Shown here: in pieces, positions 11,876 to 60,028 of the stretch | How the letters are laid out: the number at the start of each line of letters is the position of its first letter | Position numbering within the stretch: position 1 is the first letter of the stretch | Source: a virus | Taxonomy: Duplodnaviria; Heunggongvirae; Uroviricota; Caudoviricetes | DNA: 64,000 bases | Virus record (IMG/VR): IMGVR_UViG_3300020045_008999 | Location: 224,001 to 288,000 of that record | Reading direction: 5' to 3' (one strand) | Notes under the pieces: model-generated | Database searches by the model: none | Seen by the model: the letters and a program-made list of their open reading frames with translations, nothing else | Told to the model about the DNA's origin: nothing | Program-made: the position numbers and the translations under genes

Positions 11876-12285
11876 ATTTTATGTCTAAGCATTACTACGT
11901 AATCGTAAATATGCCCATATCCATCACTGATGTCTATTCGATGACAATCTTCCTCAAAATTAGCATCACCACTTTCATCAATATAACCAGAATGCGACAT
12001 TAGTATATACAACCAATAATCGTGTATGAATATTTCAATTTGATCGCATTCACCGTCATCTATATCAGTACTAATATATAAATTATTGTCAACTAATTCA
12101 AATGGTACCACATCCACCACACCCTTCAAATTTTTAAGTATATTGTAAATATCATTAATTTCATCATCAGATAGAGCATCGGTTTCGTTTCCATGCGCCT
12201 CTGAAAATTCCTCATAGGATATTTGTTCAACATTTTGAGTATGTAAATTTTCAATAAACATTTTGAATTTTTGTATCATTGCCAT
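11857..12285 (-). CDS. tandem paralog family member 11 (putative capsid-internal protein)
   Basis: MIQKFKMFIEN; IFIHDYWLY; HRIDISDG; start reassigned to 12285. Confidence 0.8.
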   Translation of the reverse strand: MAMIQKFKMFIENLHTQNVEQISYEEFSEAHGNETDALSDDEINDIYNILKNLKGVVDVVPFELVDNNLYISTDIDDGECDQIEIFIHDYWLYILMSHSGYIDESGDANFEEDCHRIDISDGYGHIYDYVVMLRHKIKKTEH

Positions 12286-12295
12286 TTTATATATG

Positions 12296-12709
12296 TTATA
12301 GTTTATTTTCGCTACGATGCATATATGCCCGATATTCATCATCAATTATATCATGATATTTTAATAAAACATCAAATATGTCATTAGATATATCAATTTT
12401 ATAATATACTGATTCTGGATCGTAATCTGAGGTAAATATGTATTCTACATATAACCAATAATCATCATCAATAAAAATTACCATTCGATCATCGTTATTG
12501 GCTGTTATATCAAACCAAATTTCTGAATATCCCGAATACTCATGCGGGTCCTCGATATCATATAAATCACATATTGTGGCTGTAATTTCATCCGGGATAA
12601 TAATATCATTGAAACCAATGCTCTTATATTCAACATACTCAGGTTCCGTTAATTTAACTATTACTTCATTTTCTACGCTCTCGGTAAATAATTTAAATTT
12701 TTTTATCAT
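12296..12709 (-). CDS. tandem paralog family member 10
   Basis: MIKKFKLFTES; FIDDDYWLY; YKIDISND. Confidence 0.85.
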   Translation of the reverse strand: MIKKFKLFTESVENEVIVKLTEPEYVEYKSIGFNDIIIPDEITATICDLYDIEDPHEYSGYSEIWFDITANNDDRMVIFIDDDYWLYVEYIFTSDYDPESVYYKIDISNDIFDVLLKYHDIIDDEYRAYMHRSENKL

Positions 12710-12712
12710 GTA

Positions 12713-13120
12713 TTATATATTAACAATTATTGTTTGCAATTCGGTGTCTAAGAATTTAGACAAAAATTCCAGCGATTCACTAACATCAATTTGCGCATAT
12801 GTTGTCAAATATTCATCATAATATTGTTGTAAAGATTCTAACTTCACATATAAATAATAATCATCATCACTAAAAATGTACCCGGTTATTGTATGATTAT
12901 ACGTAAATATCATCAACTTACCACTAGGGATATATTTTAAACCGGGCGGAACACCTGCATTTTCAAAACTTTGTTTCACAATATCAAATAACGGGCGGAA
13001 CAATTTAGATTTCGCTGATCGTGCACTAGCTTTGAATATGCTTTCATATTCGGACTGTGTTATTATGGTGATATTTTCACTATTTACACTCTCTGTAAAC
13101 CGTATGTATTTTTTAATCAT
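12713..13120 (-). CDS. tandem paralog family member 9
   Basis: MIKKYIRFTES; FSDDDYYLY; AQIDVSES. Confidence 0.85.
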   Translation of the reverse strand: MIKKYIRFTESVNSENITIITQSEYESIFKASARSAKSKLFRPLFDIVKQSFENAGVPPGLKYIPSGKLMIFTYNHTITGYIFSDDDYYLYVKLESLQQYYDEYLTTYAQIDVSESLEFLSKFLDTELQTIIVNI

Positions 13121-13135
13121 TAGAATATTTTAGTT

Positions 13136-13546
13136 TTATAAAAATTGTATTGGGGGTATAGAGTTTATAAATTTCTCAACATTAATTACACCCTCACTAA
13201 TATCAATTTTAGCACAATCTGATTCATAGTGAGCATCATTACCATTATCAATTTTCCTTTCAACATTTACATAGATATAATAATCGGAATCCGAGAAAAT
13301 ATATACATAAATACTACGATCAGTTACCATGAATGTTATTCTTTCACCATCGCCAAATTCCATAACAGACATAGTTAATCCCTGCCGTTCTACGTAATCA
13401 GTGATAATGGAAAGTATAGCAGCACACAGATCACTATCGATTACTATCCGTGAATTTTGATAAAAATCGTCAAACTCTTGTTCAGATATTATCTCAATTT
13501 CATCATTACTTATGCTTTCAACAAATCTTATAAATTTTTTAATCAT
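13136..13546 (-). CDS. tandem paralog family member 8
   Basis: MIKKFIRFVES; FSDSDYYIY; AKIDISEG. Confidence 0.85.
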   Translation of the reverse strand: MIKKFIRFVESISNDEIEIISEQEFDDFYQNSRIVIDSDLCAAILSIITDYVERQGLTMSVMEFGDGERITFMVTDRSIYVYIFSDSDYYIYVNVERKIDNGNDAHYESDCAKIDISEGVINVEKFINSIPPIQFL

Positions 13547-13943
13547 TTATTTCGTTTATAATTTCGTTTATAATCACTGAAGCCTTTTTTACTGAATCGA
13601 ATCCATCACCTATGTCAATTTTATATGAATACTGAACTGCACTTGATGACGTGATTGAGATAACATACATCAGATATGCCCAATAGTCATCATCAACGCA
13701 CAGAAGAAGCATATCATCGGTTTCATTTATAAATGAAGATAATCTACTACCAACCCGCGTACTAGTACCAGACAATCTACATGCACTATATTCCGAGAAC
13801 ACTGCAATTACTTCATCACATAAGCTCTCAGGTATTATCACACCGTTTTGTATAGCATCTGAAAATTCCTGGTTAGTTATTTCAATTACTTCATCATCAC
13901 CTTTAGACTCTAAAAACATTTTAAATTTCTTAATCATTATCAC
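13539..13943 (-). CDS. tandem paralog family member 7
   Basis: MIKKFKMFLES; VDDDYWAY; YKIDIGDG. Confidence 0.85.
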   Translation of the reverse strand: MIMIKKFKMFLESKGDDEVIEITNQEFSDAIQNGVIIPESLCDEVIAVFSEYSACRLSGTSTRVGSRLSSFINETDDMLLLCVDDDYWAYLMYVISITSSSAVQYSYKIDIGDGFDSVKKASVIINEIINEIND

Positions 13944-14361
13944 TTATCAATTTTTTCAGGATATTCCAATATTCACTCATATTGCTATACCCGTCGGAGA
14001 TGTCTATTTTGTGATACCAGGCTCTCACACCCGGTTGTGGAACAAAACGTACATAACCATCAGATGTGGTGATGATTTTATATTCTGGGATAGTATAAGT
14101 AATATACAACCAATAGTCATCATCTATGAATAAGTAAATATTTTCCATCGTTTTAGATTCACCATGTAATTCACAATCACTATTGTCATAGTATAATACA
14201 ATTTTATTCATTTCACTAGTTATATCGACAAACATATCATGTTCAATTTTGACTTGAATATTGCCTCGGGCACGATCCCAATCATCGCGAGTGATTTGTA
14301 CTACATTTTCTTCGGGATTGTTATTTTCTAAAAATAGTTTAAACTTAGTAATCATCATCAA
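13930..14361 (-). CDS. tandem paralog family member 6
   Basis: MITKFKLFLEN; FIDDDYWLY; YHKIDISDG. Confidence 0.85.
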   Translation of the reverse strand: MMMITKFKLFLENNNPEENVVQITRDDWDRARGNIQVKIEHDMFVDITSEMNKIVLYYDNSDCELHGESKTMENIYLFIDDDYWLYITYTIPEYKIITTSDGYVRFVPQPGVRAWYHKIDISDGYSNMSEYWNILKKLISDND

Positions 14362-14782
14362 TATTTAATTTATCTCTAATAGCTTCTATAATATTTAAAT
14401 ATTCCGGAACGTTATCATAACCATTACCAATATCTATTTTGTGATACAATTCGGTTGGTTCGATAATCTCATCTAATCGGAATCCTGGTTTATACGACAT
14501 TGAATAATTTACATATAACCAGTAATCATTATCCATAAACAAATTCAGCTGGTCATAAAAATTCGATTCAGCGCTAATGCTAAACCTAGTATCATCATAA
14601 TCAAAATAAAATTCTCTTCTTGGATTAAAAACAGCACGAATTCCAATTAGTGAATTTTCTGGGAATACTATGCGATCATTAAGCCATGCATAATTCCAAT
14701 CACTTAAAGTGATCTCTATTACGACATCATCTGTATTAATATTTTCCAAAAATAATTTGAAATTAGTTATCATTTTGATCAT
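14345..14782 (-). CDS. tandem paralog family member 5
   Basis: MITNFKLFLEN; FMDNDYWLY; YHKIDIGNG. Confidence 0.85.
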   Translation of the reverse strand: MIKMITNFKLFLENINTDDVVIEITLSDWNYAWLNDRIVFPENSLIGIRAVFNPRREFYFDYDDTRFSISAESNFYDQLNLFMDNDYWLYVNYSMSYKPGFRLDEIIEPTELYHKIDIGNGYDNVPEYLNIIEAIRDKLNIDDDY

Positions 14783-14792
14783 TTTATAAAAT

Positions 14793-15170
14793 TTAGTTCT
14801 CGGCTGTTATGTTAATAATCTCACAGTATTTCTCAGTATACTCATATCCATTAGCAATATCTATTTTGTGATATTGGTAATTCGGGGACTCTTGACAATA
14901 TTTTACCCACATATAATAGTCTGTATCAATAAATATATACAGATTAATGTTACGATACTCGAATGACATTGAATTCGTTGCATCGCTTTCACATGGTGTG
15001 TATTTTATATCAATATACGGCCTGAATGCGTCGATTATTACATCAACATCAGATTGACCAAATGAAACACTTGATTCTTCAAAAGTTTCATAATATTCAT
15101 ACTCACTAACTTCTTCGACATACTCGTTTGCGTTATTATTTTCCAGAAATAATTTAAAATTAGTTATCAT
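14793..15170 (-). CDS. tandem paralog family member 4
   Basis: MITNFKLFLEN; FIDTDYYMW; YHKIDIANG. Confidence 0.85.
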   Translation of the reverse strand: MITNFKLFLENNNANEYVEEVSEYEYYETFEESSVSFGQSDVDVIIDAFRPYIDIKYTPCESDATNSMSFEYRNINLYIFIDTDYYMWVKYCQESPNYQYHKIDIANGYEYTEKYCEIINITAEN

Positions 15171-15594
15171 CCTCTCCCATTAATTTATATTCTTCCTCTA
15201 ACATCACTTTGGTTTTATCTAACAGCTGCATGTAATCCGAAATATAATTATACCCATCAGAAATATCAATTTTATGATAAAGCTCACATGGTTCATAATA
15301 AAAATCAAACTCATATCTTACCCACAAATAATAATCTGAATCAAAAAACATTTCATACCTACCCGGGTCATTTCCTATATCGAAGTTCAACATATGGACA
15401 ATATCCCCACCATCGTCATCATCGCGATTAAGTATGTGATATTTACTAAAACCGGATATGATTTTATCACAATCATCATCATTAATATGGATACTATTAG
15501 TTTTAAACTCATCCCAAAATTCTGCGATATTCACTTCAACAACATTATCTGAATCTGCGATACTTTCTAAAAATAATTTATATTTTTTTATCAT
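15160..15594 (-). CDS. tandem paralog family member 3
   Basis: MIKKYKLFLES; FFDSDYYLW; YHKIDISDG. Confidence 0.85.
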   Translation of the reverse strand: MIKKYKLFLESIADSDNVVEVNIAEFWDEFKTNSIHINDDDCDKIISGFSKYHILNRDDDDGGDIVHMLNFDIGNDPGRYEMFFDSDYYLWVRYEFDFYYEPCELYHKIDISDGYNYISDYMQLLDKTKVMLEEEYKLMGEDDN

Positions 15595-16091
15595 TATTCT
15601 CTATTTCTTTTTTGATCCACTATTTCTAAATATTCTGCAATATGGATAAACCCTTCACTAATATCGATTTTGTGGTAAATTGATAAGTAATTATCAGAAT
15701 CTTCATAATCCTCGTCGTCATATATTTGATCGTCATCCCAATAATCACCATCACCATCACCATCACCATCACCATCACCATCAATTTGATCGACATCCCA
15801 GTACTCGCGATCTACCATTCTAATATCATAATTTATATATAACCAATAATCACTATCCAAGAATAAATAAACACTGTCGTCTGGTCCGTTCATGGATGCC
15901 TCTTTACCACTACGCGCCCTAGAAAAGATTAAATCTGATTCAACAAGTGTATTGTTTATATCATCAACAAATGATTGATCTATGTGAATAGCATACAGAT
16001 TATATTGATCATTATACTCATCTGCACTAATTTCAACAATATTATCCTCGGTGTCTATACTTTCTAAAAATAGTTTATATTTTGTTATCAT
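15594..16091 (-). CDS. tandem paralog family member 2 (with DG-repeat loop)
   Basis: MITKYKLFLES; FLDSDYWLY; YHKIDISEG. Confidence 0.85.
   Translation of the reverse strand: MITKYKLFLESIDTEDNIVEISADEYNDQYNLYAIHIDQSFVDDINNTLVESDLIFSRARSGKEASMNGPDDSVYLFLDSDYWLYINYDIRMVDREYWDVDQIDGDGDGDGDGDGDYWDDDQIYDDEDYEDSDNYLSIYHKIDISEGFIHIAEYLEIVDQKRNRE
15745..15783. repeat. hexanucleotide microsatellite (TCACCA)x6.5 encoding poly(DG)
   Basis: direct reading of sequence. Confidence 0.95.
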
Positions 16092-16095
16092 TACT

Positions 16096-16506
16096 CTACT
16101 CTATGTTTCTTTTTTGATCCACTATTTTCAAATATTTTTCAATGTGAATGAGACCTTCACTGATGTCTATTTTGTGATATAATGAACTGTAATTTTCGTT
16201 GGGAGCACCACTAGCGGATACCGGCATAATATCGTAATTTACATATAACCAATAATCATTATCAATAAAAACGCTCATCAGCTCATCATTATGTGAATAA
16301 TTAAATGCGCTTATTTCACTGCTAGATATTTTCAAAATTGAATCAGATGAAGTTCTACCCAATGCAATATTCAATTCATGTAAAAAACCCGGATCCATAC
16401 AAATACTATCTAACTCAAACTGTGCATCGTATTCATCTACACTAATTTCAATGATATTATCTTCGGTGTCTATACTTTCCAAAAATAATTTAAATTTTTT
16501 TATCAT
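16096..16506 (-). CDS. tandem paralog family member 1
   Basis: MIKKFKLFLES; FIDNDYWLY; YHKIDISEG. Confidence 0.85.
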   Translation of the reverse strand: MIKKFKLFLESIDTEDNIIEISVDEYDAQFELDSICMDPGFLHELNIALGRTSSDSILKISSSEISAFNYSHNDELMSVFIDNDYWLYVNYDIMPVSASGAPNENYSSLYHKIDISEGLIHIEKYLKIVDQKRNIE

Positions 16507-16510
16507 AATC

Positions 16511-16520
16511 TATATATTAA
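16511..16520 (-). promoter_or_regulatory. putative late promoter (TTAATATATA) heading the paralog array
   Basis: 4 nt upstream of ATG; same motif precedes about 19 genes including the baseplate gene. Confidence 0.65.
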
Positions 16521-16536
16521 TAATATCTTTGTAAAT

Positions 16537-32228: not shown

Positions 32229-34079
32229 TTATTTCATAATAGCCTCTTTGCGTAGATCTGATTCATCACCGAACCAAACGTTCAAACTATCACTAGAAAG
32301 ATTATCTGTGGTAATCATAGTCAGTTTGGGATTTTTAATAATTTCAGCATATTCATCATCTACTAATGCTGCCAGACCTTTTTTATACTTTATCTCCCAG
32401 TCTTTAAGGTTTTTGCCCTTTTCCCACTTAGCATATTCTTGATTGGTGTATAAAGATGTTTTATTTTTTGTTTTAATATTTTTCACAACTATAACCGGGG
32501 TTTCAACCTTATAAATCATATTATATTCAAATAATTCGGGCCAGAATTTATAAAAGAAATTTAATAATAGTCCGGCGATCGCACTACCATCCTTATCAGA
32601 ATCCACGTATAATAAAATACTACCATATCTCATTTTTTCCTTCACTGCACGTTGTCCAAACTTCAAACCCATCGCGGCCATCACATTAACCGCTTCGGCA
32701 TTTTTACTCAATTTTTGAATACTTATATCCATACAGTTGATGAACTTCCCACGTAACGCAAATGCGCCCATGTTTTCATCCCGATGTGTTCTGAAATTAC
32801 CGATTGCTGAATCACCTTCATATAGACCTAATGAACATTTCCAGCGATTTGTTCCTTTTGCGTCAATCAATTTATCAACCTTTAAGTTAGAAACGGTCTT
32901 ATTTAATTCGCGGGCCAATTTATTATCATCTGCCAATTTCTTCTGATCAATCCAATCTAAGATAGATGCCACTATTTCAGATTTCAGTATAGATTGTATC
33001 ATTTTAGGACTAACTTCAAATGTTGTTCCAAAATCACGTACCTCGGTTATCAACTTTTCCTTTGTCTGAGATGAAAATGTAGAATTCACAATAGTAGTAT
33101 CTAAAAATAAAGTTATATGACTTTTGATCTCAGATGGCTTGATATCAACTTTATGTTTTTTGATGAAAAATTCTCTTAATTGGTCAACAATTTGCTTCAT
33201 AATATAATCAACATGAGTCCCACCATCATATGTATCGGTCGAATTAGCAAAACTTATTTGCTGAAACCCATTATCCGACCTACCAACACCAATAGACCAC
33301 GTTTTCGACTTATTAGTTTCATAGAAATATTCACTGGTATATAGTTTAACATAATCTTCAAATGAGTTTATATTAACCAACACACCATTGTAATATATTT
33401 TCAAATTTGGGTTACATCCAGCCAAATCATAAATGCGTTTTTCGATCATTTTACAGTGATTATCATCGATTCCTTTCATACCAAACCTCTCATAATCTGG
33501 CAAAAATGTGATCTCTGTATGTTTCTTAGTAGATTTAATTACTTTGGCGGTAGTTCTCGCGGACATATTATTCGAAAAAGTCTGTGAGAATTTATTTATC
33601 CCATCACAGGTTGATAAGATAAATTCCTTTGAAAATATATTAGTAATTGAGCTACCAACACCATTTGTACCAGCTAATACACGGTCTTCGTCATCATTGA
33701 AGTTACTACCAGCTTTCATATTAGAAAAAATCATTTCCGGTATCCACTCATTATATTCCTTATGTTTCAAAACTGGAATTCCACCATTGTCAAATATCTT
33801 AATTTTATCATTAACAATATCAACTTTTATTATATTAAGTTTAGAACCCACACGTTTACTTTCATCTACAGAATTTGTGATAATTTCATCGAAAATTTTC
33901 ATAAACCCGGGATTGTATTCAACTTCCTGTTTTGTCATCCTATTATCAGCTAATATCCATTTCAATGCCTTATGTGGTTTTACTGATCCAATATACATCG
34001 ACGGGCGATGTAATACGTGTTGTTCATCAGATAGTTTCTTATACTTATCCTCTATTGTCTTGTCTATTTTCTTAGCCAT
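32229..34079 (-). CDS. type IIA DNA topoisomerase ATPase/TOPRIM subunit (T4 gp39+60-like)
   Basis: HVLHRPSMYIGS, EIITNSVDE, DNGG, GTNGVG, GGTHV, EGDSA, LRGK, DSDKDG, KGLA. Confidence 0.95.
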   Translation of the reverse strand: MAKKIDKTIEDKYKKLSDEQHVLHRPSMYIGSVKPHKALKWILADNRMTKQEVEYNPGFMKIFDEIITNSVDESKRVGSKLNIIKVDIVNDKIKIFDNGGIPVLKHKEYNEWIPEMIFSNMKAGSNFNDDEDRVLAGTNGVGSSITNIFSKEFILSTCDGINKFSQTFSNNMSARTTAKVIKSTKKHTEITFLPDYERFGMKGIDDNHCKMIEKRIYDLAGCNPNLKIYYNGVLVNINSFEDYVKLYTSEYFYETNKSKTWSIGVGRSDNGFQQISFANSTDTYDGGTHVDYIMKQIVDQLREFFIKKHKVDIKPSEIKSHITLFLDTTIVNSTFSSQTKEKLITEVRDFGTTFEVSPKMIQSILKSEIVASILDWIDQKKLADDNKLARELNKTVSNLKVDKLIDAKGTNRWKCSLGLYEGDSAIGNFRTHRDENMGAFALRGKFINCMDISIQKLSKNAEAVNVMAAMGLKFGQRAVKEKMRYGSILLYVDSDKDGSAIAGLLLNFFYKFWPELFEYNMIYKVETPVIVVKNIKTKNKTSLYTNQEYAKWEKGKNLKDWEIKYKKGLAALVDDEYAEIIKNPKLTMITTDNLSSDSLNVWFGDESDLRKEAIMK

Positions 34080-34187: not shown

Positions 34188-35561
34188 TTGATTAATTTGA
34201 AACCAACAAAGAAAACAATTAATGAATTTCTTTCCACTGAATATAAGGAATTCGCACTTTACGTCATTGAAAACAGAGCAATCCCAAGTTATATCGACGG
34301 ATTTAAACCTGTGCACCGTAAAGTTGCACATGTGTCATCACATGTTTGGAAGACTGGAAATGAGAAAACGATTAAGATATACCAATTATCAGGGAAAGTA
34401 TCTGCCGATGTGCAGTACCATCACGGCGACTCAAGTCTTAACTCGGCCATTATTAATATGGCTCAGAAATTTAAAAACAATCTTCCATTAATGATGGATG
34501 AGGGACAATTCGGTACACTTAGATCACCACAACCAGGGGCCGCGAGATACATCGGAACTAAATTAAATTCCATATTTAGATATATTTATTTGGATGATAA
34601 TTTATTAGAATATAATGAAGAAGAGGGCGAGGTAATCGAACCGAAATATTTTCTTCCTATTATTCCGATGGTCCTCATTAATGGATCATCTGGTATTGCG
34701 GTGGGATTTGCTTCCAATATTTTAAACAGAGATCCAAATGATATCATTTTAGCATGTGAGAGTATCATCAAAGGTAAAAAAATTAAATCGGTAGCACCGA
34801 GGATTCCTAGTTTTAGCGGAACATGCATTCAAGATATTGACAATCACAAAAAATGGAATTTATTAGGTGCATTCAAACGTGTAAATACAACTACAATACA
34901 GATAACTGAATTACCGCCATCTATGACATTTGAGAAATATGAAAATATTTTGGAAAAATTGGTAGAAAATAAAACTATTGTTTCATACAACGATAAATGT
35001 GCGAGTGATATTAATTACGTGATAAAATTCACCCGCTCTAACTTAGATAAATTAACCGATGATAAGATTATAAAATTATTTTCACTCAGCGAATCACAAA
35101 CTGAAAATTTCAACACATTGGATGAAAATGGACAATTGAAAATTTTTCAAAGTGATATTGAAATTATAAAAGAATTTACCATTTTCCGATTATCATATTA
35201 TCAAAAACGTAAAGATGCTATTGTTGCAAAATTAGAACGGGAAAATTTAATATTAAATAATCGTCTAATTTTCGTAAAAGCAATTATTGATAATAAAATC
35301 GAAATCAAAAATAAATCAAAGGAAATTATTAATAAATTAATCACCGGGTTGAAAGTTGATCAAATTGATGGATCATATGATTACTTGCTCAGGATGCCTA
35401 TGTATTCAATCACCAAAGAGTATTATGAGAAAATGAAACTAGATATAAAGGACAAAGAAAATGAAATAATAGAAGTTGGTAAGAAAAATGTATCCGATAT
35501 GTATTTAGAAGATTTAATAACCCTGAAAAAGGAAATCAAAAAAATGGAAAAGATAGTATAA
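34188..35561 (+). CDS. type IIA DNA topoisomerase breakage-reunion subunit (T4 gp52-like)
   Basis: RAIP..IDGFKPVHRK, YHHGD.S, AARY catalytic Tyr, LINGSSGIAVGF; TTG start uncertain. Confidence 0.95.
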   Translation: MINLKPTKKTINEFLSTEYKEFALYVIENRAIPSYIDGFKPVHRKVAHVSSHVWKTGNEKTIKIYQLSGKVSADVQYHHGDSSLNSAIINMAQKFKNNLPLMMDEGQFGTLRSPQPGAARYIGTKLNSIFRYIYLDDNLLEYNEEEGEVIEPKYFLPIIPMVLINGSSGIAVGFASNILNRDPNDIILACESIIKGKKIKSVAPRIPSFSGTCIQDIDNHKKWNLLGAFKRVNTTTIQITELPPSMTFEKYENILEKLVENKTIVSYNDKCASDINYVIKFTRSNLDKLTDDKIIKLFSLSESQTENFNTLDENGQLKIFQSDIEIIKEFTIFRLSYYQKRKDAIVAKLERENLILNNRLIFVKAIIDNKIEIKNKSKEIINKLITGLKVDQIDGSYDYLLRMPMYSITKEYYEKMKLDIKDKENEIIEVGKKNVSDMYLEDLITLKKEIKKMEKIV

Positions 35562-35596
35562 AAAATGCCCAGTTTCAATGAACTGGGCATTTTTTT
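35560..35596. terminator. bidirectional intrinsic terminator
   Basis: AAAAAATGCCCAGTT-TCAATG-AACTGGGCATTTTTTT. Confidence 0.85.
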
Positions 35597-36269
35597 AAAA
35601 ATCTATTTCATTCATAATATCCATCATTATTTTATTACGGCGTTCATTTTCTACTTCATATGCTGCTTCGCCAAGTAATTTCATTTCAATTAAGTTTTGG
35701 TGATCGTGATTTTTCTCACTGGGTCTTCGCCAAGCTAAAAAATCTAGCTCCGCTCGCACAGATGAACGATCCATTTTTTCGGACCAGGTCAATTCCACTC
35801 GATTGTCCTTCAGGTTTTTATCACTTCTACTAATCGCATGTCTATTATAAAAACGATTTCGAATTTGAAGTTGTTTTTGATATCCTAACCACTGCTCACC
35901 AGATTCATTTATCTCAGCTAATATCAAATCAAGAACATTTGGTAAAAGTTTGATGGTACCTTTTGATGGTAAATTATCAGACATATTTTCTATAAATGTT
36001 GCTTGGTAATTGTTTTCTTTTTTGAATTGAATGAATTCAAATTTATAATCATTGCCATACAATCCACATTCAACCTTATCAAGTATTACATTGATGACAA
36101 TATGATCAACATCATAAAAGCTATTTAGACTACGATCAATATAGGTACATAAAATATCACCATTTTCATTTTCACCGACTTTAACCGCTTTTTTTAAATA
36201 AACAAGATGTGTAGATTCAAAGTGGTATTTTGTACATATTTCTGTTAAAATGTTACTAGTCTTTGACAT
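35595..36269 (-). CDS. hypothetical protein
   Basis: 224-aa ORF after TATATTTG (36297-36304, minus). Confidence 0.6.
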   Translation of the reverse strand: MSKTSNILTEICTKYHFESTHLVYLKKAVKVGENENGDILCTYIDRSLNSFYDVDHIVINVILDKVECGLYGNDYKFEFIQFKKENNYQATFIENMSDNLPSKGTIKLLPNVLDLILAEINESGEQWLGYQKQLQIRNRFYNRHAISRSDKNLKDNRVELTWSEKMDRSSVRAELDFLAWRRPSEKNHDHQNLIEMKLLGEAAYEVENERRNKIMMDIMNEIDF

Positions 36270-38713: not shown

Positions 38714-39172
38714 ATGGATAAAGTTAATTGTGTTTACCGACTTGGTTTATTTTTCAGTGAATATGTAGGAATGGATAATATTAAATTTCATTCACCAGAT
38801 TACCTATATGAAAAAATGGAAGTATTATTTAACATACCAGAGATGATATTAACACCATATGAACACGAATGGGGTTGTCATGAATTTATTATTAAATACG
38901 AAGGCACATGGGGGCCTATTACTGATACCTGTATTACTCGATTTATACTTTTTATATTCCATGCACGTGCACCTACTAGTGCAGAGAATTATATCAACAA
39001 CTTCGAAAAGTTTATATGTCCAATTCAAGATATAGTTTTAACTAATAACTATTTCCCAATGCATTTCAAAACTCTCAATTCTATTAATGAAATAATAGAA
39101 TTGTTAGAAAGATCTTCTGCCCACAAAAATATTATCCGATCATTATCAATAAAAAAACTTTTATCAAAATAA
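38714..39172 (+). CDS. hypothetical protein with C-terminal tag
   Basis: start reassigned to ATG 38714; ends RSLSIKKLLSK. Confidence 0.55.
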   Translation: MDKVNCVYRLGLFFSEYVGMDNIKFHSPDYLYEKMEVLFNIPEMILTPYEHEWGCHEFIIKYEGTWGPITDTCITRFILFIFHARAPTSAENYINNFEKFICPIQDIVLTNNYFPMHFKTLNSINEIIELLERSSAHKNIIRSLSIKKLLSK

Positions 39173-39180
39173 TTCGCTGG

Positions 39181-39467
39181 CTTGCTTAGTGGCTGATTAA
39201 AGACTAAAAATAACCAACACATACTAATCATTAAATTAAGAAAATACAAATGAATCAAGAAAATACAAATGAGCCATTAAGCAAGACTGCTGTTATAAGT
39301 CGGTTTTTATACGAAATGGCTGAAAAACATAATATTTCGGTAGATGGTATAGTAATAGGAATTGAAGAAATACATCCTAAAAGAGTTGATGGTAAAGTGA
39401 AATTACAGGTTATGAATTTAGATTTTCATAATTTAGAAGAGTTTTTGACTGAAAATGGCTTATGAAC
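39181..39467 (+). mobile_element. attC-like hairpin plus gene cassette relic 1 (ORF 39250-39465)
   Basis: IR CTTGCTTAGTGGCT/AGCCATTAAGCAAG; core GTTATAAGTCGGTTTT matches end AAAATGGCTTATGAAC. Confidence 0.5.
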
Positions 39468-39480
39468 ATACCAATTATCA

Positions 39481-39849
39481 ATGAGTAACGAAAATTCCAA
39501 ATACGAGGCACTTATGCCGATTTTAAAAGAAATTGATGCATTTGTTAATTTAATTGACAATTGGGATGGTTATGGTGCCATACCATTATTATCAGTGGTT
39601 CGTGATAATGCAATAATAGTGTTGAAATATTTCACCATACCACCCAGTGATTATTACCCAAATCCCCAGGGTACTATATCTATAAAATACGATTGTGATA
39701 TTCACCAACTGAATTTAGAAATTGGTACTACTCAATTCACATATTACACAACATTCAATGGTGTTCTACAAGAGAATGGAAGTTATCTGGATATTACCGA
39801 AATAAATTTAATGTGTTTAAAACTGCTAGTTCCTAATTTATTTTTATAG
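39481..39849 (+). CDS. hypothetical protein (NWDGYGA motif family)
   Basis: L.DNWDGYGA.P motif. Confidence 0.6.
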   Translation: MSNENSKYEALMPILKEIDAFVNLIDNWDGYGAIPLLSVVRDNAIIVLKYFTIPPSDYYPNPQGTISIKYDCDIHQLNLEIGTTQFTYYTTFNGVLQENGSYLDITEINLMCLKLLVPNLFL

Positions 39850-39859
39850 TTAGTAAAAT

Positions 39860-39893
39860 AAAAAAAAGGCGTGAAATATTTCACGCCTTTTTT
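39860..39893. terminator. bidirectional intrinsic terminator
   Basis: AAAAAAGGCGTGAAAT-ATTTCACGCCTTTTTT. Confidence 0.85.
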
Positions 39894-39914
39894 GTTTATA
39901 CTAATATAACACTA

Positions 39915-42313: not shown

Positions 42314-43003
42314 TTAAAATATAAATTGTCGAATATTATTACCGGCATACATTTTATGAAGTAATGAATCAGTTGAATTGTAAATGGGGTAATTATTTAA
42401 CGTTTTAGAGTCGTATAGTTTAATTGCTTCAATTCTTATACGCGCTTCCCATCCCATTAAAGAATCTTTATTTAAATCATAGGATATGTCCTGTATATTT
42501 GATAACTCTGGTAGGATATTTTCAAGTAATTTTTGCGCAATTACCAAACTACGATGTGCTAATTTTAATTTTTTTGGATCGTTATTTCGTAAATCTCGTT
42601 TAGCCACACCACAATATGATTTGATAATTTTAAAAGTTCTACACATGCTTAATATGCTTTCGGAATCCCAATTGCCACTAAATATTACAATATCTGAATA
42701 TATAGTACCATCTGCTAAAAACAAATTACTATAAAATTGTCGCTCAGTAGTCCATATATATTCAGTGTTACTATCAATGTCTGCATATTTAAATGAATGT
42801 AAATTAGGTAGATATGTTTGATCGCTTTCATCAAAAATTGAATCCCATTTATACATTCTTAAATAATCATAATCACTATTTTCATGATTGGTCCCAAATA
42901 ATCGAGAACCAAATTTAAATTCTTTGTAATCAGAACCACATAATCGCTGATGTTCGGCTAATGTAATTTCCATATTCATAATAGTAAAATTTAATTCATA
43001 CAA
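42314..43003 (-). CDS. Pol-beta superfamily nucleotidyltransferase (RlaP-like), copy 2
   Basis: FGSRLFG....SDYDY; IIKSYCG.AKRD. Confidence 0.75.
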   Translation of the reverse strand: MYELNFTIMNMEITLAEHQRLCGSDYKEFKFGSRLFGTNHENSDYDYLRMYKWDSIFDESDQTYLPNLHSFKYADIDSNTEYIWTTERQFYSNLFLADGTIYSDIVIFSGNWDSESILSMCRTFKIIKSYCGVAKRDLRNNDPKKLKLAHRSLVIAQKLLENILPELSNIQDISYDLNKDSLMGWEARIRIEAIKLYDSKTLNNYPIYNSTDSLLHKMYAGNNIRQFIF

Positions 43004-57897: not shown

Positions 57898-58457
57898 TGT
57901 TGATATCGATAATTGGCGCGCCCTCTAGTGGGAAATCCACCTTAGCAACCTCGGTACAGTATTCCATGAAAAAAAGTGGAATGAATTCAGTATTTGTAAC
58001 TGAGGCCGCCACCGACTATATCGCAGAGTATGGGATACCTAATTCTGCTATTGAACAAATGGTTATTTTTTATAAGCAATTGAATAGAGAGAAGATGTAT
58101 ATGGAAAGTAAGGATTATATAATTTGTGATTCCAGTTCATTGTTAAATTATTTTTACTTCCGGACAATGTTTCCGCAGAAACCCTCTGGTAAGGATATTG
58201 CAACCATCAACCACGTTCAAAAGGAAATATTAAAATCGATCAACCAATGGGACTATATTTTTTACATACCCCCGATGGATATAGATCCTAATGATGGAAT
58301 ACGCTTCCATAATCATTCAGAAATAACGGAATTAGACATTCGTATAAAATCATATCTGAATATGGAAAATATTAATTATATTGATCTAAGTAATGTTCCA
58401 TTGGATGATCGTGATGCATTTATAATTAACACTATATCAAAAAGTCCCATTAAGTAG
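57897..58457 (+). CDS. P-loop kinase/ATPase (NadR-kinase/AAA_28-like)
   Basis: IIGAPSSGKSTLA; V.E.A; IICDSS; DGIR. Confidence 0.7.
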   Translation: MLISIIGAPSSGKSTLATSVQYSMKKSGMNSVFVTEAATDYIAEYGIPNSAIEQMVIFYKQLNREKMYMESKDYIICDSSSLLNYFYFRTMFPQKPSGKDIATINHVQKEILKSINQWDYIFYIPPMDIDPNDGIRFHNHSEITELDIRIKSYLNMENINYIDLSNVPLDDRDAFIINTISKSPIK

Positions 58458-58521
58458 TGGGATTTTTTGGTTAAGTCGTTTTTTATACATATATTTGTAC
58501 TATTAATCAAAAATATTTATT

Positions 58522-58785
58522 ATGGTAACTAAGAAAAATAAAACCGTGGAACCATTTCGTCCAATTAGTGTCATAGCAAATGAAATTGTAGCAGACTGGG
58601 GTGCTAATGTAAATTTTGGTGCGGTGCCTCATCTGAATGCGTTATTACAACTTGATAAAATTTCAGATTCGTATGGTCTAGATAGTGCTGAATTAACTAT
58701 CGCGTACTTTCTTTCAAATGCATCAACCTGGCGAGGTGAGACTGCCCGACGCATTAAGTTAGAGTTAAATCGAATGATCAAATAA
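58522..58785 (+). CDS. conserved phage hypothetical protein
   Basis: YG.DS....YFL.NA.TWRGE.AR.IK.EL motif. Confidence 0.6.
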   Translation: MVTKKNKTVEPFRPISVIANEIVADWGANVNFGAVPHLNALLQLDKISDSYGLDSAELTIAYFLSNASTWRGETARRIKLELNRMIK

Positions 58786-58790
58786 TGATT

Positions 58791-59249
58791 AAACGTTTGT
58801 CGCCTGTGGTAGTTGGGAAAATAAAGCCCAAAACACCGAATAATTACTAATCATAAAAACACAAAACAATGTCAAAGTTAAAGACCGAAACCCAATTACC
58901 ACAAGCAATTGTTAGCCGTTCGGTTGATGATTTTGATTATACGTGTTTCAAATGTAAAACTTATAAAACAAATAATTTAGATAATTTATTCGACCATCGC
59001 CAATATTGTAAAATAAAAACAAATAAAATAAAAAAAATATGGAATCAATTAATGCAAATGCTATCTGTTTAGATTGTGGAACTGCAAAAGAAAATCCTGA
59101 AAATGGTTTTTGTATGAATGGTCACGATAACTGGCTTGAAGAAATGGATAAAATAGAAAGATTTTCAGAGGCTTCAATTAAATTTAATAAAACAACTTCT
59201 GAATTGATGTTTCATATTCAGCAGAATGTTTCTATAACTGAAGGCTAAC
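58791..59249 (+). mobile_element. attC-like hairpin plus gene cassette relic 2 (ORFs 58869-59072 and 59039-59248, both Cys-containing)
   Basis: IR CCTGTGGTAGTTGGG/CCCAATTACCACAAG; core GTTAGCCGTTCGGTT matches end AACTGAAGGCTAAC. Confidence 0.55.
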
Positions 59250-59659
59250 AATATACTTTGGTAGAAGCTATGGTAATTATTGAACAACCAAATAGCGATG
59301 GGTATATGTTCTTATAAAAGAATGTAATTTACCAGTAGACATTGTAAAAGCGTTGGTTAAAAATTATTCGGTATTTCTGGCCCCGATGAGTCCGGATAGT
59401 TGGGATTTTAAAATTTATAATAGATTGGGTGTTATAGAAAATAAAAATTGGTCACCAATTAATGAATGTACAATAAAAACAAATTGAAATCATATGGGAA
59501 ATGTAGTAAAATTTAAAGTATCCGTATCTAATTTAGAACAGCGTAGTTTAAATAGAGTAAGGGAAATTAATTTGAAAAAATTAAATGATATGAAACTTCA
59601 AGGAAAGACTAAAGAAATGTGTTATCCTAAGTTTACCAAAATATTTGTAGATAATAACT

Positions 59660-60016
59660 ATGGGACATAGACAAGAAATGACCAAAGAGCAGCGGATGGA
59701 CTGGGACCTGAGACAATATCAAGCTAAACTAGATGCGAATAAAGGTAGTAATTTTGAATATTGGTCTAGTAAGCACGATGAAATGATTGAGAATGATTGG
59801 GATTTATATATTTTCATAAATGATAGGAGGCAAAATATGGGATTGTCATGTGAAGAATATTATACAAATAGTGAATGCCAAGCAAAGGAGATAGTTGAAT
59901 CATTGAGATCTAATAATAATTTTGCAAGAATTATATCTGGATATAGACAAACGGTTCAACGAGTTAAATCATTTTCGATCATATATAAACCAAAGAAAAC
60001 GAAAAAATCCACCTAA
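59660..60016 (+). CDS. hypothetical protein
   Basis: ORF. Confidence 0.55.
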   Translation: MGHRQEMTKEQRMDWDLRQYQAKLDANKGSNFEYWSSKHDEMIENDWDLYIFINDRRQNMGLSCEEYYTNSECQAKEIVESLRSNNNFARIISGYRQTVQRVKSFSIIYKPKKTKKST

Positions 60017-60027
60017 TGGTGGATTTT
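60002..60027. terminator. bidirectional intrinsic terminator
   Basis: AAAAAATCCACC-TAAT-GGTGGATTTT. Confidence 0.8.
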
Positions 60028-60028
60028 A

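Follow-up and report, generated by a model that had tools for sequence, protein, structure and literature searches.

Positions 58795-59249 of the window, by which we mean the whole 64,000-nt stretch of phage DNA analyzed here, probably represent a single, solo gene cassette that belongs to an integron-like system carried by phages, as judged by comparative sequence analysis. The hairpin at the left of this interval (element B) would form the 5' end of a small mobile cassette, and it comes from a large family that is apparently undescribed as such. The window belongs to a 596,785-bp phage genome (32% G+C), the nearest GenBank relatives of which are uncultured phages of 634-642 kb. In the scheme that we propose, a unit would begin with a 5' folded-DNA recombination site, made of a spacer, a stem of 15-23 bp in which one C.A and one G.T are fixed, and a loop of ~70 nt that is conserved; there would follow a TGTTA core, a cassette-specific 8-nt box, one or two small ORFs, and the reverse complement of the box, ending in TAAC. 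Units would be inserted or exchanged by site-specific recombination inside the AAC/GTT cores, most likely by a short tyrosine recombinase of Xer type that uses the folded strand in the way that IntI uses attC. Single-stranded DNA would be the substrate, one strand folding into the site, and in a circularized unit the two boxes would meet and give the hairpin a 12-bp base. The A-rich loop would supply a start codon and ~15 leader codons, the cargo being read as a fusion from the GTT codon.

All of the parts assigned to element B from the letters of the window, namely AAC, arms, loop, ATG, GTT box and end, were found in place. The features of the unit are as follows.

58790 to 58794, plus strand: left core TAAAC (AAC at 58792-58794), the junction side where units of the family are seen inserted.
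58795 to 58801, plus strand: unpaired 5' spacer GTTTGTC; the family range is 5-7 nt here versus 1-4 nt on the 3' side.
58802 to 58817, plus strand: 5' arm GCCTGTGGTAGTTGGG; G58812, opposite T58896, forms the G.T that is fixed in the family, and C58804 lies opposite A58904 (C.A).
58818 to 58890, plus strand: A-rich 73-nt loop with TACTAATCAT at 58845-58854 and the ATG at 58869; its sequence is conserved across phages.
58891 to 58906, plus strand: 3' arm CCCAATTACCACAAGC, which doubles as leader-peptide codons 8-13 (TQLPQA).
58910 to 58922, plus strand: T, right core GTTA and cassette-specific R' box (GTTAGCCGTTCG), the boundary of hairpin module and cargo.
58869 to 59072, plus strand: 67-aa ORF, its leader MSKLKTETQLPQAIV encoded by the hairpin and its body rich in Cys and His; it matches no Pfam family.
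59039 to 59248, plus strand: 69-aa ORF (CxxC...CxxxH) with a weak, below-cut-off match to DUF7564; its TAA stop (59246-59248) lies within the end box.
59238 to 59249, plus strand: end box CTGAAGGCTAAC, the R'' partner of the R' box at 58911 and right end of the unit.

The arms as first listed, CCTGTGGTAGTTGGG (58803-58817) and CCCAATTACCACAAG (58891-58905, followed by AATT and then by GTTAGCCGTTCGGTT from 58911), are paired at 13 of 15 positions, and inclusion of G58802-C58906 makes a stem of 16 bp that contains a single C.A mismatch and a single G.T. A search of the window for the 15-mer, allowing up to three mismatches, found these two arms and nothing else (0.31 matches expected). The predicted fold closes the stem around the 73-nt loop (z = -2.0), and a covariance model of the family, described below, scored the element at E = 1e-20. 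As had been claimed, two small Cys-containing ORFs of 67 and 69 aa follow, both open and Cys-rich, and AACTGAAGGCTAAC at 59236-59249 holds the TAA stop of the second. A CALIN is a cluster of at least two attC sites within a few kb and with no integrase; element B stands alone by this definition, with no second element within 1.5 kb and the nearest copy (element A) 19.5 kb away.

To search the 597-kb genome, we used a motif-plus-stem scan and then covariance models built from two (R1) and eleven (R2) copies; MAFFT alignments were out of structural register, and copies B and F served as the seed of the model, which was then re-aligned. The genome holds at least 14 copies, 11 strong and three or four weaker, all co-oriented with local genes. 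Among the 11 strong copies, 19 of 21 stem pairs are altered on both sides, and 84% of cells pair, versus 30-46% when the partner columns were slid as a control; one G.T is present in 11/11. The copies are scattered and mostly solo, with no adjacent recombinase; six further solo copies have partner boxes of 9-10 nt at 159-406 nt downstream, while the groups R-E-F (585.5-586.3 kb) and J-P (87.4-87.9 kb) would count as CALINs. Their downstream ORFs are single-copy orphans of 47-127 aa, and those that start in the loop have a common leader such as MxxxKxxTQLPQxxV and then diverge. No Rfam family matched elements A, B, C, E or F.

Element A, proposed as a first cassette of the same kind, proved real (39176-39295): its geometry is like that of B, and its leader EPLSKTAVISRF parallels the B leader.

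39170 to 39295, plus strand: element A hairpin, with arms 39176-39198 and 39268-39290, a 69-nt loop, T39291, and GTTA at 39292-39295.
39250 to 39849, plus strand: element A cargo, a 71-aa ORF (leader MNQENTNEPLSKTAV, start in the loop) and a 122-aa ORF.

The TAA stop of the upstream gene occupies 39170-39172, the loop holds TACTAATCAT at 39222 and an ATG at 39250, the model score is 87 bits, and the predicted fold, like that of B, is a long stem around a loop of ~70 nt. A terminator (39855-39898) comes after the cargo; the search for an end box gave none that is convincing, the best run being 6, at 39899-39910. Two candidate explanations of such sequences were discarded: TACTAATCAT as a promoter or general motif, with 6 exact copies in the genome versus 5.5 expected and just 3 of these within elements, and translational bypass or splicing across the hairpin, for which upstream and downstream frames are inconsistent. 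The two megaphage relatives LR756502 and LR745206 carry small arrays, including variants with the flanks of the family and loops of 5-45 nt (loop length among relatives ranges from 5 to 75 nt), which indicates that the loop is dispensable for the core element. A search of these relatives for an empty site of copy H found its region to be without synteny.

A covariance-model scan beyond this genome found the family in arrays in many phages, including the cultured Flavobacterium phage 11b, in which four copies lie at 1707-2774; these copies tie the family to Bacteroidota. A first scan of IMG/VR gave at least five complete phage genomes of 35-53 kb with 2-9 copies each, in arrays and with scores up to 112 bits, and a second gave at least 207 more matches in at least 77 loci. 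Among the matches listed, arrays of 2-12 occur in many phage contigs of 30-170 kb, and more than 250 further copies, as a lower bound, exist beyond the 597-kb phage. The copies from these scans, hereafter the foreign elements, lie in IMG/VR loci picked by pattern and then scored with R2. The anatomy is constant: (T)AAC-G, a spacer of 5-7 nt, an arm of 15-23 nt, the A-rich loop, the other arm, 1-4 nt of which the last is T, and GTTA. Covariation extends to 20 of 21 stem pairs in 86 foreign copies, with 88.8% of cells paired; the fixed imperfections G.T and C.A are present in 85/86 and 65/86, respectively, and TGTTA in 86/86. Of 193 foreign elements, 186 have a T before the AAC of the left core, and 189 have a G after it. 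The family does not keep the full RYYYAAC/GTTRRRY consensus (position 5 is T or G), and its fixed stem features are mismatches rather than extrahelical bases, with an asymmetric spacer and a long loop that is conserved in sequence. Some of the longer cassette ORFs resemble DNA methyltransferases (contigs G004, at 42567; G005, at 129; and G002, at 33153 and 34026; phage 11b, at 34950-35600); one has a motif like LSLFDGMSCG, and phage 11b has an annotated N6_N4 methylase. A search for homologous cargo ORFs between arrays found very few.

In arrays, two 12-nt boxes are reverse complements of each other: R', which starts with the GTTA after one hairpin, and R'', which ends with the TAAC ahead of the next hairpin. 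Runs of at least 9 between these two boxes were observed in 46 of 54 neighbors less than 400 nt apart and in 31 of 45 at 400-800 nt; boxes around a single hairpin had such a run in 4 of 193, otherwise matching only in the 4-nt core. The start/end complementarity that the sequence-only reading ascribed to the cassettes is thus general, although at element B it is less complete than claimed: an exact 7-nt run (GTTAGCC/GGCTAAC) lies at the position given by the family rule, but only 9 of 12 positions match ungapped. Taken alone, this is weakly above chance, as best runs of 4-8 are common in the background; it is the family signature, weaker than usual. Complementarity of R' and R'' is the product expected of an integron-type crossover inside the core, and no other mechanism known to us would provide every ORF with an inverted end-box pair of its own.

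Which end of the unit carries the hairpin was evident from two kinds of data. Terminal elements of arrays are followed in 33 of 36 cases by cargo and a partner box with no hairpin detected beyond, whereas just 15 of 36 first elements have a hairpin-less partner upstream. Moreover, two related phage contigs with flanks ~90% identical, L225 and L240, present an empty and an occupied site. L225 reads ...CTACAAC followed directly by AACTAATAG; in L240, G, hairpin, R', two ORFs and an R'' ending in TAAC, ~596 nt in all, are inserted between CAAC and AAC. Altogether, these data indicate that the inserting unit has its hairpin at the 5' end, with the junction between TAAC and G. The opposite strand has canonical attC geometry, so the ORFs are inverted relative to those of ordinary integron cassettes; the polarity of attC sites, with the site 3' of the ORF and crossover between G and TT of the 3' core, is not that of this family. 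Hence, of the integron-style capture element first proposed, the cores, complementary ends and arrays hold, whereas the polarity differs and the junction is at TAAC and G, not only at G and TT. With the hairpin at the 5' end, the unit of element B is 58795-59249; its hairpin-less TAAC end at 59249, earlier taken as a sign of truncated downstream sites, is what most terminal or solo units have (33/36), and that claim does not stand. The L240 unit (L240:11103-11698, minus strand; empty site at L225:409/410) interrupts a conserved gene at codon 7, between MIHKLQ and QLIDRK..., and since this parts the start codon from the gene body, insertion can disrupt or re-start genes of the host phage.

We then compared hairpins irrespective of cargo. 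Among 79 pairs that are at least 85% identical and lie in different loci, the upstream flank is common to none, R' only to 10, and neither to 69. The segment of element B from AAC to GTT is 85-86% identical to hairpins of contigs G005 and G004, unrelated phages of 41-44 kb, with flanks at the background level of 52-65%. Near-identical leaders (MSKLKTETQLPQAIV, MNKLKTETQLPQTIV and MNKLKTDTQLPQMIV) are fused to unrelated proteins of 67, 82 and 276 aa, the switch occurring at the GTT codon. Variable ORFs switching at this codon, in TGTTA, are therefore a property of the family, and neither of the outcomes that the sequence-only reading had named as refuting it was observed. In addition, a soil-metagenome contig carries the B cargo (1 difference in 95 nt) fused in frame to a different hairpin arm, exactly at T58910. 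Modular homology, fused leaders and the soil contig together support that hairpin module and cargo are separable at TGTTA. Of 185 foreign elements, 92 have a loop ATG from which an ORF of 50 aa or more starts, and the leader is read over one CTGTTA in frames ending ...KTAV (46) or ...KPLL (40), frame 1 being almost unused (6). The idea that the site donates start and leader thus fits half of the family, B included, at the level of sequence, expression itself being a prediction. Homology breaks at both cores, and exchange at both, which a single integron-type crossover does not predict, speaks against the cassette reading; perhaps the site, being nearly symmetrical, can recombine by either strand.

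The B cargo also occurs, at 95-99% identity, in contigs from four unrelated metagenome studies (groundwater, aquaculture, soil and biofilter), and a metagenome contig of 396 nt aligns, through its letters 1-394, with 58856-59249. Four sequencing runs gave nearly no cover of the flanks (58300-58840 and 59250-59800), a lack that does not argue for their absence. A BLAST search of GenBank phages with element B found no match. When an empty site for B was sought, LR756502 and LR745206 were found to be without the entire block between the genes of 186 and 214 aa, and 25 IMG/VR relatives had other content and no element at the locus. No recombination event, circle or empty site was found for B itself, which counts against the cassette reading. 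The space between these convergent genes (58458-60028; the 186-aa product is P-loop-like) is a hot spot: the gap measures 10 to 2280 nt in the 25 IMG/VR relatives and 115-670 nt in LR756502 and LR745206, and the six small ORFs that the window has there are absent from all of them. A decayed second hairpin after 59249 (59245-59360) was considered and rejected; RNAfold draws one, but by local alignment it is unlike the hairpins of B (p = 0.68) and G005 (p = 0.74), and the covariance model gave no element at 59245-59360.

As the sequence-only reading noted, no integrase is encoded in the window; tyrosine recombinases linked to arrays, which it suggested looking for, exist in other phages. A tyrosine recombinase is present in 13 of 34 array-bearing contigs, and in 10 of the 26 that are at least 90% complete. 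Nine of the genomes examined carry a short Xer-like recombinase (266-309 aa), eight of them with an open frame of 267-309 aa and contig G001 with one of 266 aa; in all nine, the gene is encoded downstream of the array on the strand of the elements, within ~1 kb of the last one. The linkage of array and recombinase is strong. The G001 enzyme scored best against XerA/XerC/XerD models; with the integron-integrase model TIGR02249, two stretches match, far below the cut-off. In the 597-kb genome, the single PF00589 match is a divergent, catalytic-domain-only protein of 183 aa (genome 108146-108697; L029:8146-8697), which lies among leucine-rich-repeat genes and beside no array and is 23% identical to the array-linked type. 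A peptide-pattern scan of IMG/VR found no close relatives of it, and a search of the two megaphage relatives found no tyrosine recombinase. A complete integron, with an IntI that has its extra domain, an attI and a cassette promoter, was not found. Of the integron-style enzyme, what holds is a tyrosine recombinase linked to arrays, but this is a short Xer-type protein and not IntI, and none lies beside B. The 16 of 26 near-complete array-bearing genomes without any tyrosine recombinase count against the cassette reading; since most arrays lack an enzyme in cis, any activity that they have must often depend on one supplied by the host or in trans. The system may be active in the 597-kb megaphage, whose scattered, mostly solo copies with no recombinase next to them look like captured cassettes rather than an active array. 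Accordingly, the earlier view of relics of capture from a Bacteroidota or phage pool survives in that B looks captured and the family occurs in Bacteroidota phages, but not as regards truncation.

Several alternatives were weighed against these data. Arbiol et al. reportedly proposed in 2010 that PeSL (promoter-early stem-loop) cassettes of T4-type phages are shuffled via circles, and the present elements could likewise be mobile regulatory cassettes, intergenic repeats that shuffle ORFs by homologous recombination. The likeness is real, in that both combine a repeated stem-loop bearing expression signals with small variable ORFs in plastic regions of large phage genomes: our elements lie between small orphan ORFs of hyperplastic regions, 25 relatives vary in the gap that separates the 186-aa from the 214-aa gene, and the hairpin module is a conserved repeat of 120-130 nt. 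PeSL cassettes, however, reportedly use homologous recombination, whereas here the stems covary freely, junctions are fixed at 3-4 nt, units have their own end boxes, and a recombinase is linked. Homologous recombination yields neither cassette-specific inverted boxes nor sharp breaks at 3-4-nt cores, would not place a unit in a site with only AAC in common, and would find little homology in stems that vary widely between copies of one genome. We consider this explanation improbable.

A slightly lower probability attaches to a role in RNA alone, in which an mRNA hairpin presents or hides a translation start, or forms an RNase III-type processing site, and has spread by duplication. Hairpins at the start regions of T4 genes e, 49 and 25 are precedents for it, all copies are co-oriented with flanking genes, and half have an A-rich leader and ATG in the loop. 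The fixed G.T is a wobble solely on the sense strand, and G.T exceeds A.C by 59 to 20 in foreign copies; in the 597-kb genome, however, the two are equal (14 versus 15), and the short-loop variants (5-45 nt) of the relatives hold no start codon. This explanation also leaves without account the cassette-specific boxes complementary across each ORF, the precise insertion between CAAC and AAC, the recombinase at the array end, and near-identical hairpins with unrelated flanks in unrelated phages. A conserved A-rich loop with a start codon does argue that the module also has an expression role, which would make that role part of the same cassette device, not a rival to it.

That the GTTA.../...TAAC boxes are the terminal inverted repeats of a non-autonomous, MITE-like transposon, with its transposase elsewhere, is very unlikely. 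Inverted repeats of 10-12 bp do bound each ORF unit, and there is one clean insertion; yet the repeats are unit-specific beyond the 4-nt core and so unrecognizable to any transposase, no target duplication is seen apart from the common AAC, and the array-linked gene is of Xer type. Finally, a functionless chance inverted repeat in AT-rich DNA, with which the modest single-sequence fold z-scores (-2.0 and -2.5) and the lack of enrichment of TACTAATCAT would agree, is refuted by the E value of element B and by the further copies with full covariation.

The cassette reading, which we prefer, invites comparison with integrons, regarded as a bacterial device defined by IntI. Like attC, the phage site is an imperfect palindrome with ...AAC and GTT... 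cores and an unpaired spacer; fixed stem imperfections that would mark polarity and a variable terminal part may be further points in common. Like integron cassettes, the units are small and promoter-less, carry mostly orphan ORFs in same-strand arrays, have a start complementary to the box before their hairpin-side end, and insert into secondary sites with only the core in common; as with integrons and CALINs, a tyrosine recombinase gene lies at one end of an array, and many arrays have none. The differences are equally specific. On the coding strand, the phage hairpin is 5' of the ORF, and the ORFs are inverted; the boxes, 12 nt long, are cassette-specific and do not follow RYYYAAC/GTTRRRY; where attC has extrahelical bases, the phage stem (15-23 bp) has a mismatch and a wobble; and the conserved, unpaired loop of ~70 nt, with its start codon and leader, has no counterpart in attC. 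Homology in the phage family breaks at both cores, and the linked enzyme, of 266-309 aa and Xer type, is encoded downstream of the array on the same strand. The phage cassette system is integron-like, yet it falls outside the integrons by two tests of membership, integrase type and ORF/site polarity. A further parallel is the attP of CTX-phi, a folded single-stranded site used with XerCD, by which the whole phage genome integrates at the host dif. Here, too, a Xer-family recombinase would act, presumably on a one-strand hairpin, but single genes move between phage genomes and arrays accumulate.

The closest precedent that our literature search found is the report of 17 CALINs in 10,705 phage genomes, detected in virulent phages with IntegronFinder/HattCI models (Qi et al. 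2023, PMC9892861). In that study, Polaribacter phage P12002L has two attC sites with methyltransferase cassettes, one of which recombined with attI1 under IntI1 (PMC9892861). This CALIN resembles the present arrays in having attC-like sites amid small ORFs and orphan DNA methyltransferases in marine Bacteroidota phages with no phage integrase; the P12002L site nevertheless represents a different site family, matching R2 weakly (32.5 and 27.9 bits). The hairpin family, its arrays, the start codon within the site and the Xer-type partner are not described in PMC9892861, where the terms 'start codon', 'Xer' and 'Flavobacter' are absent. Until now, phages were credited with only a handful of attC clusters, recognized via bacterial attC models (PMC9892861). 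What is new here is a distinct and abundant site family (>250 copies) with its own recombinase type and with a site-supplied start codon and leader, which integrons lack.

To a wider proposal we give an even chance of being right: that Bacteroidota phages, from 35-kb siphoviruses to 600-kb megaphages, trade cassettes via a second, independently built integron-like system, with a short Xer-type recombinase that has no IntI insert, a hairpin recombined at both AAC/GTT cores, and the hairpin serving as a portable translation-initiation module (A-rich leader, ATG and ~15-codon leader) that expresses captured ORF fragments lacking a start of their own as in-frame fusions. If true, virulent phages would have a route by which small accessory genes, including DNA methyltransferases and probably further counter-defense genes, pass between very distant lineages and between habitats, and the system would bear on the origin of integron integrases from Xer recombinases. 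Flavobacterium phage 11b offers a cultured system that carries the family.

Further features of the genome deserve mention. At 58441-58500, the 186-aa gene ends in a terminator-like hairpin, beyond which lies GTTAAGTCGTTTTTTATAC, a near-match of GTTATAAGTCGGTTTTTATAC (39292-39312), which comes after the hairpin of element A; a Bacteroidota-type -7 box, TATATTTG, comes after GTTAAGTCGTTTTTTATAC. This hairpin may be a short-loop relative of the family, but its score of 14.6 falls in the range of shuffled genomes. On the minus strand of the window, 11900-16530 contains ~7-10 small paralogous genes in tandem, repeating every ~400-420 nt (repeat families D1-D9), in which the conserved parts are the ends and starts of the genes. 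Lastly, in one sub-type of the hairpin family, a second small hairpin with a loop like TGTGGTGGG or TGGCGGTTTAT comes after the GTTA box, as seen at 586295-586330 of the genome (after hairpin F), in copies of contigs G001 and G003, and at 590131-590170 of LR745206. This second hairpin is kept together with both end boxes (GTTATAGCTTGT and ATAAGCTATAAC) in three phages, with intervening ORFs that have no detectable similarity.
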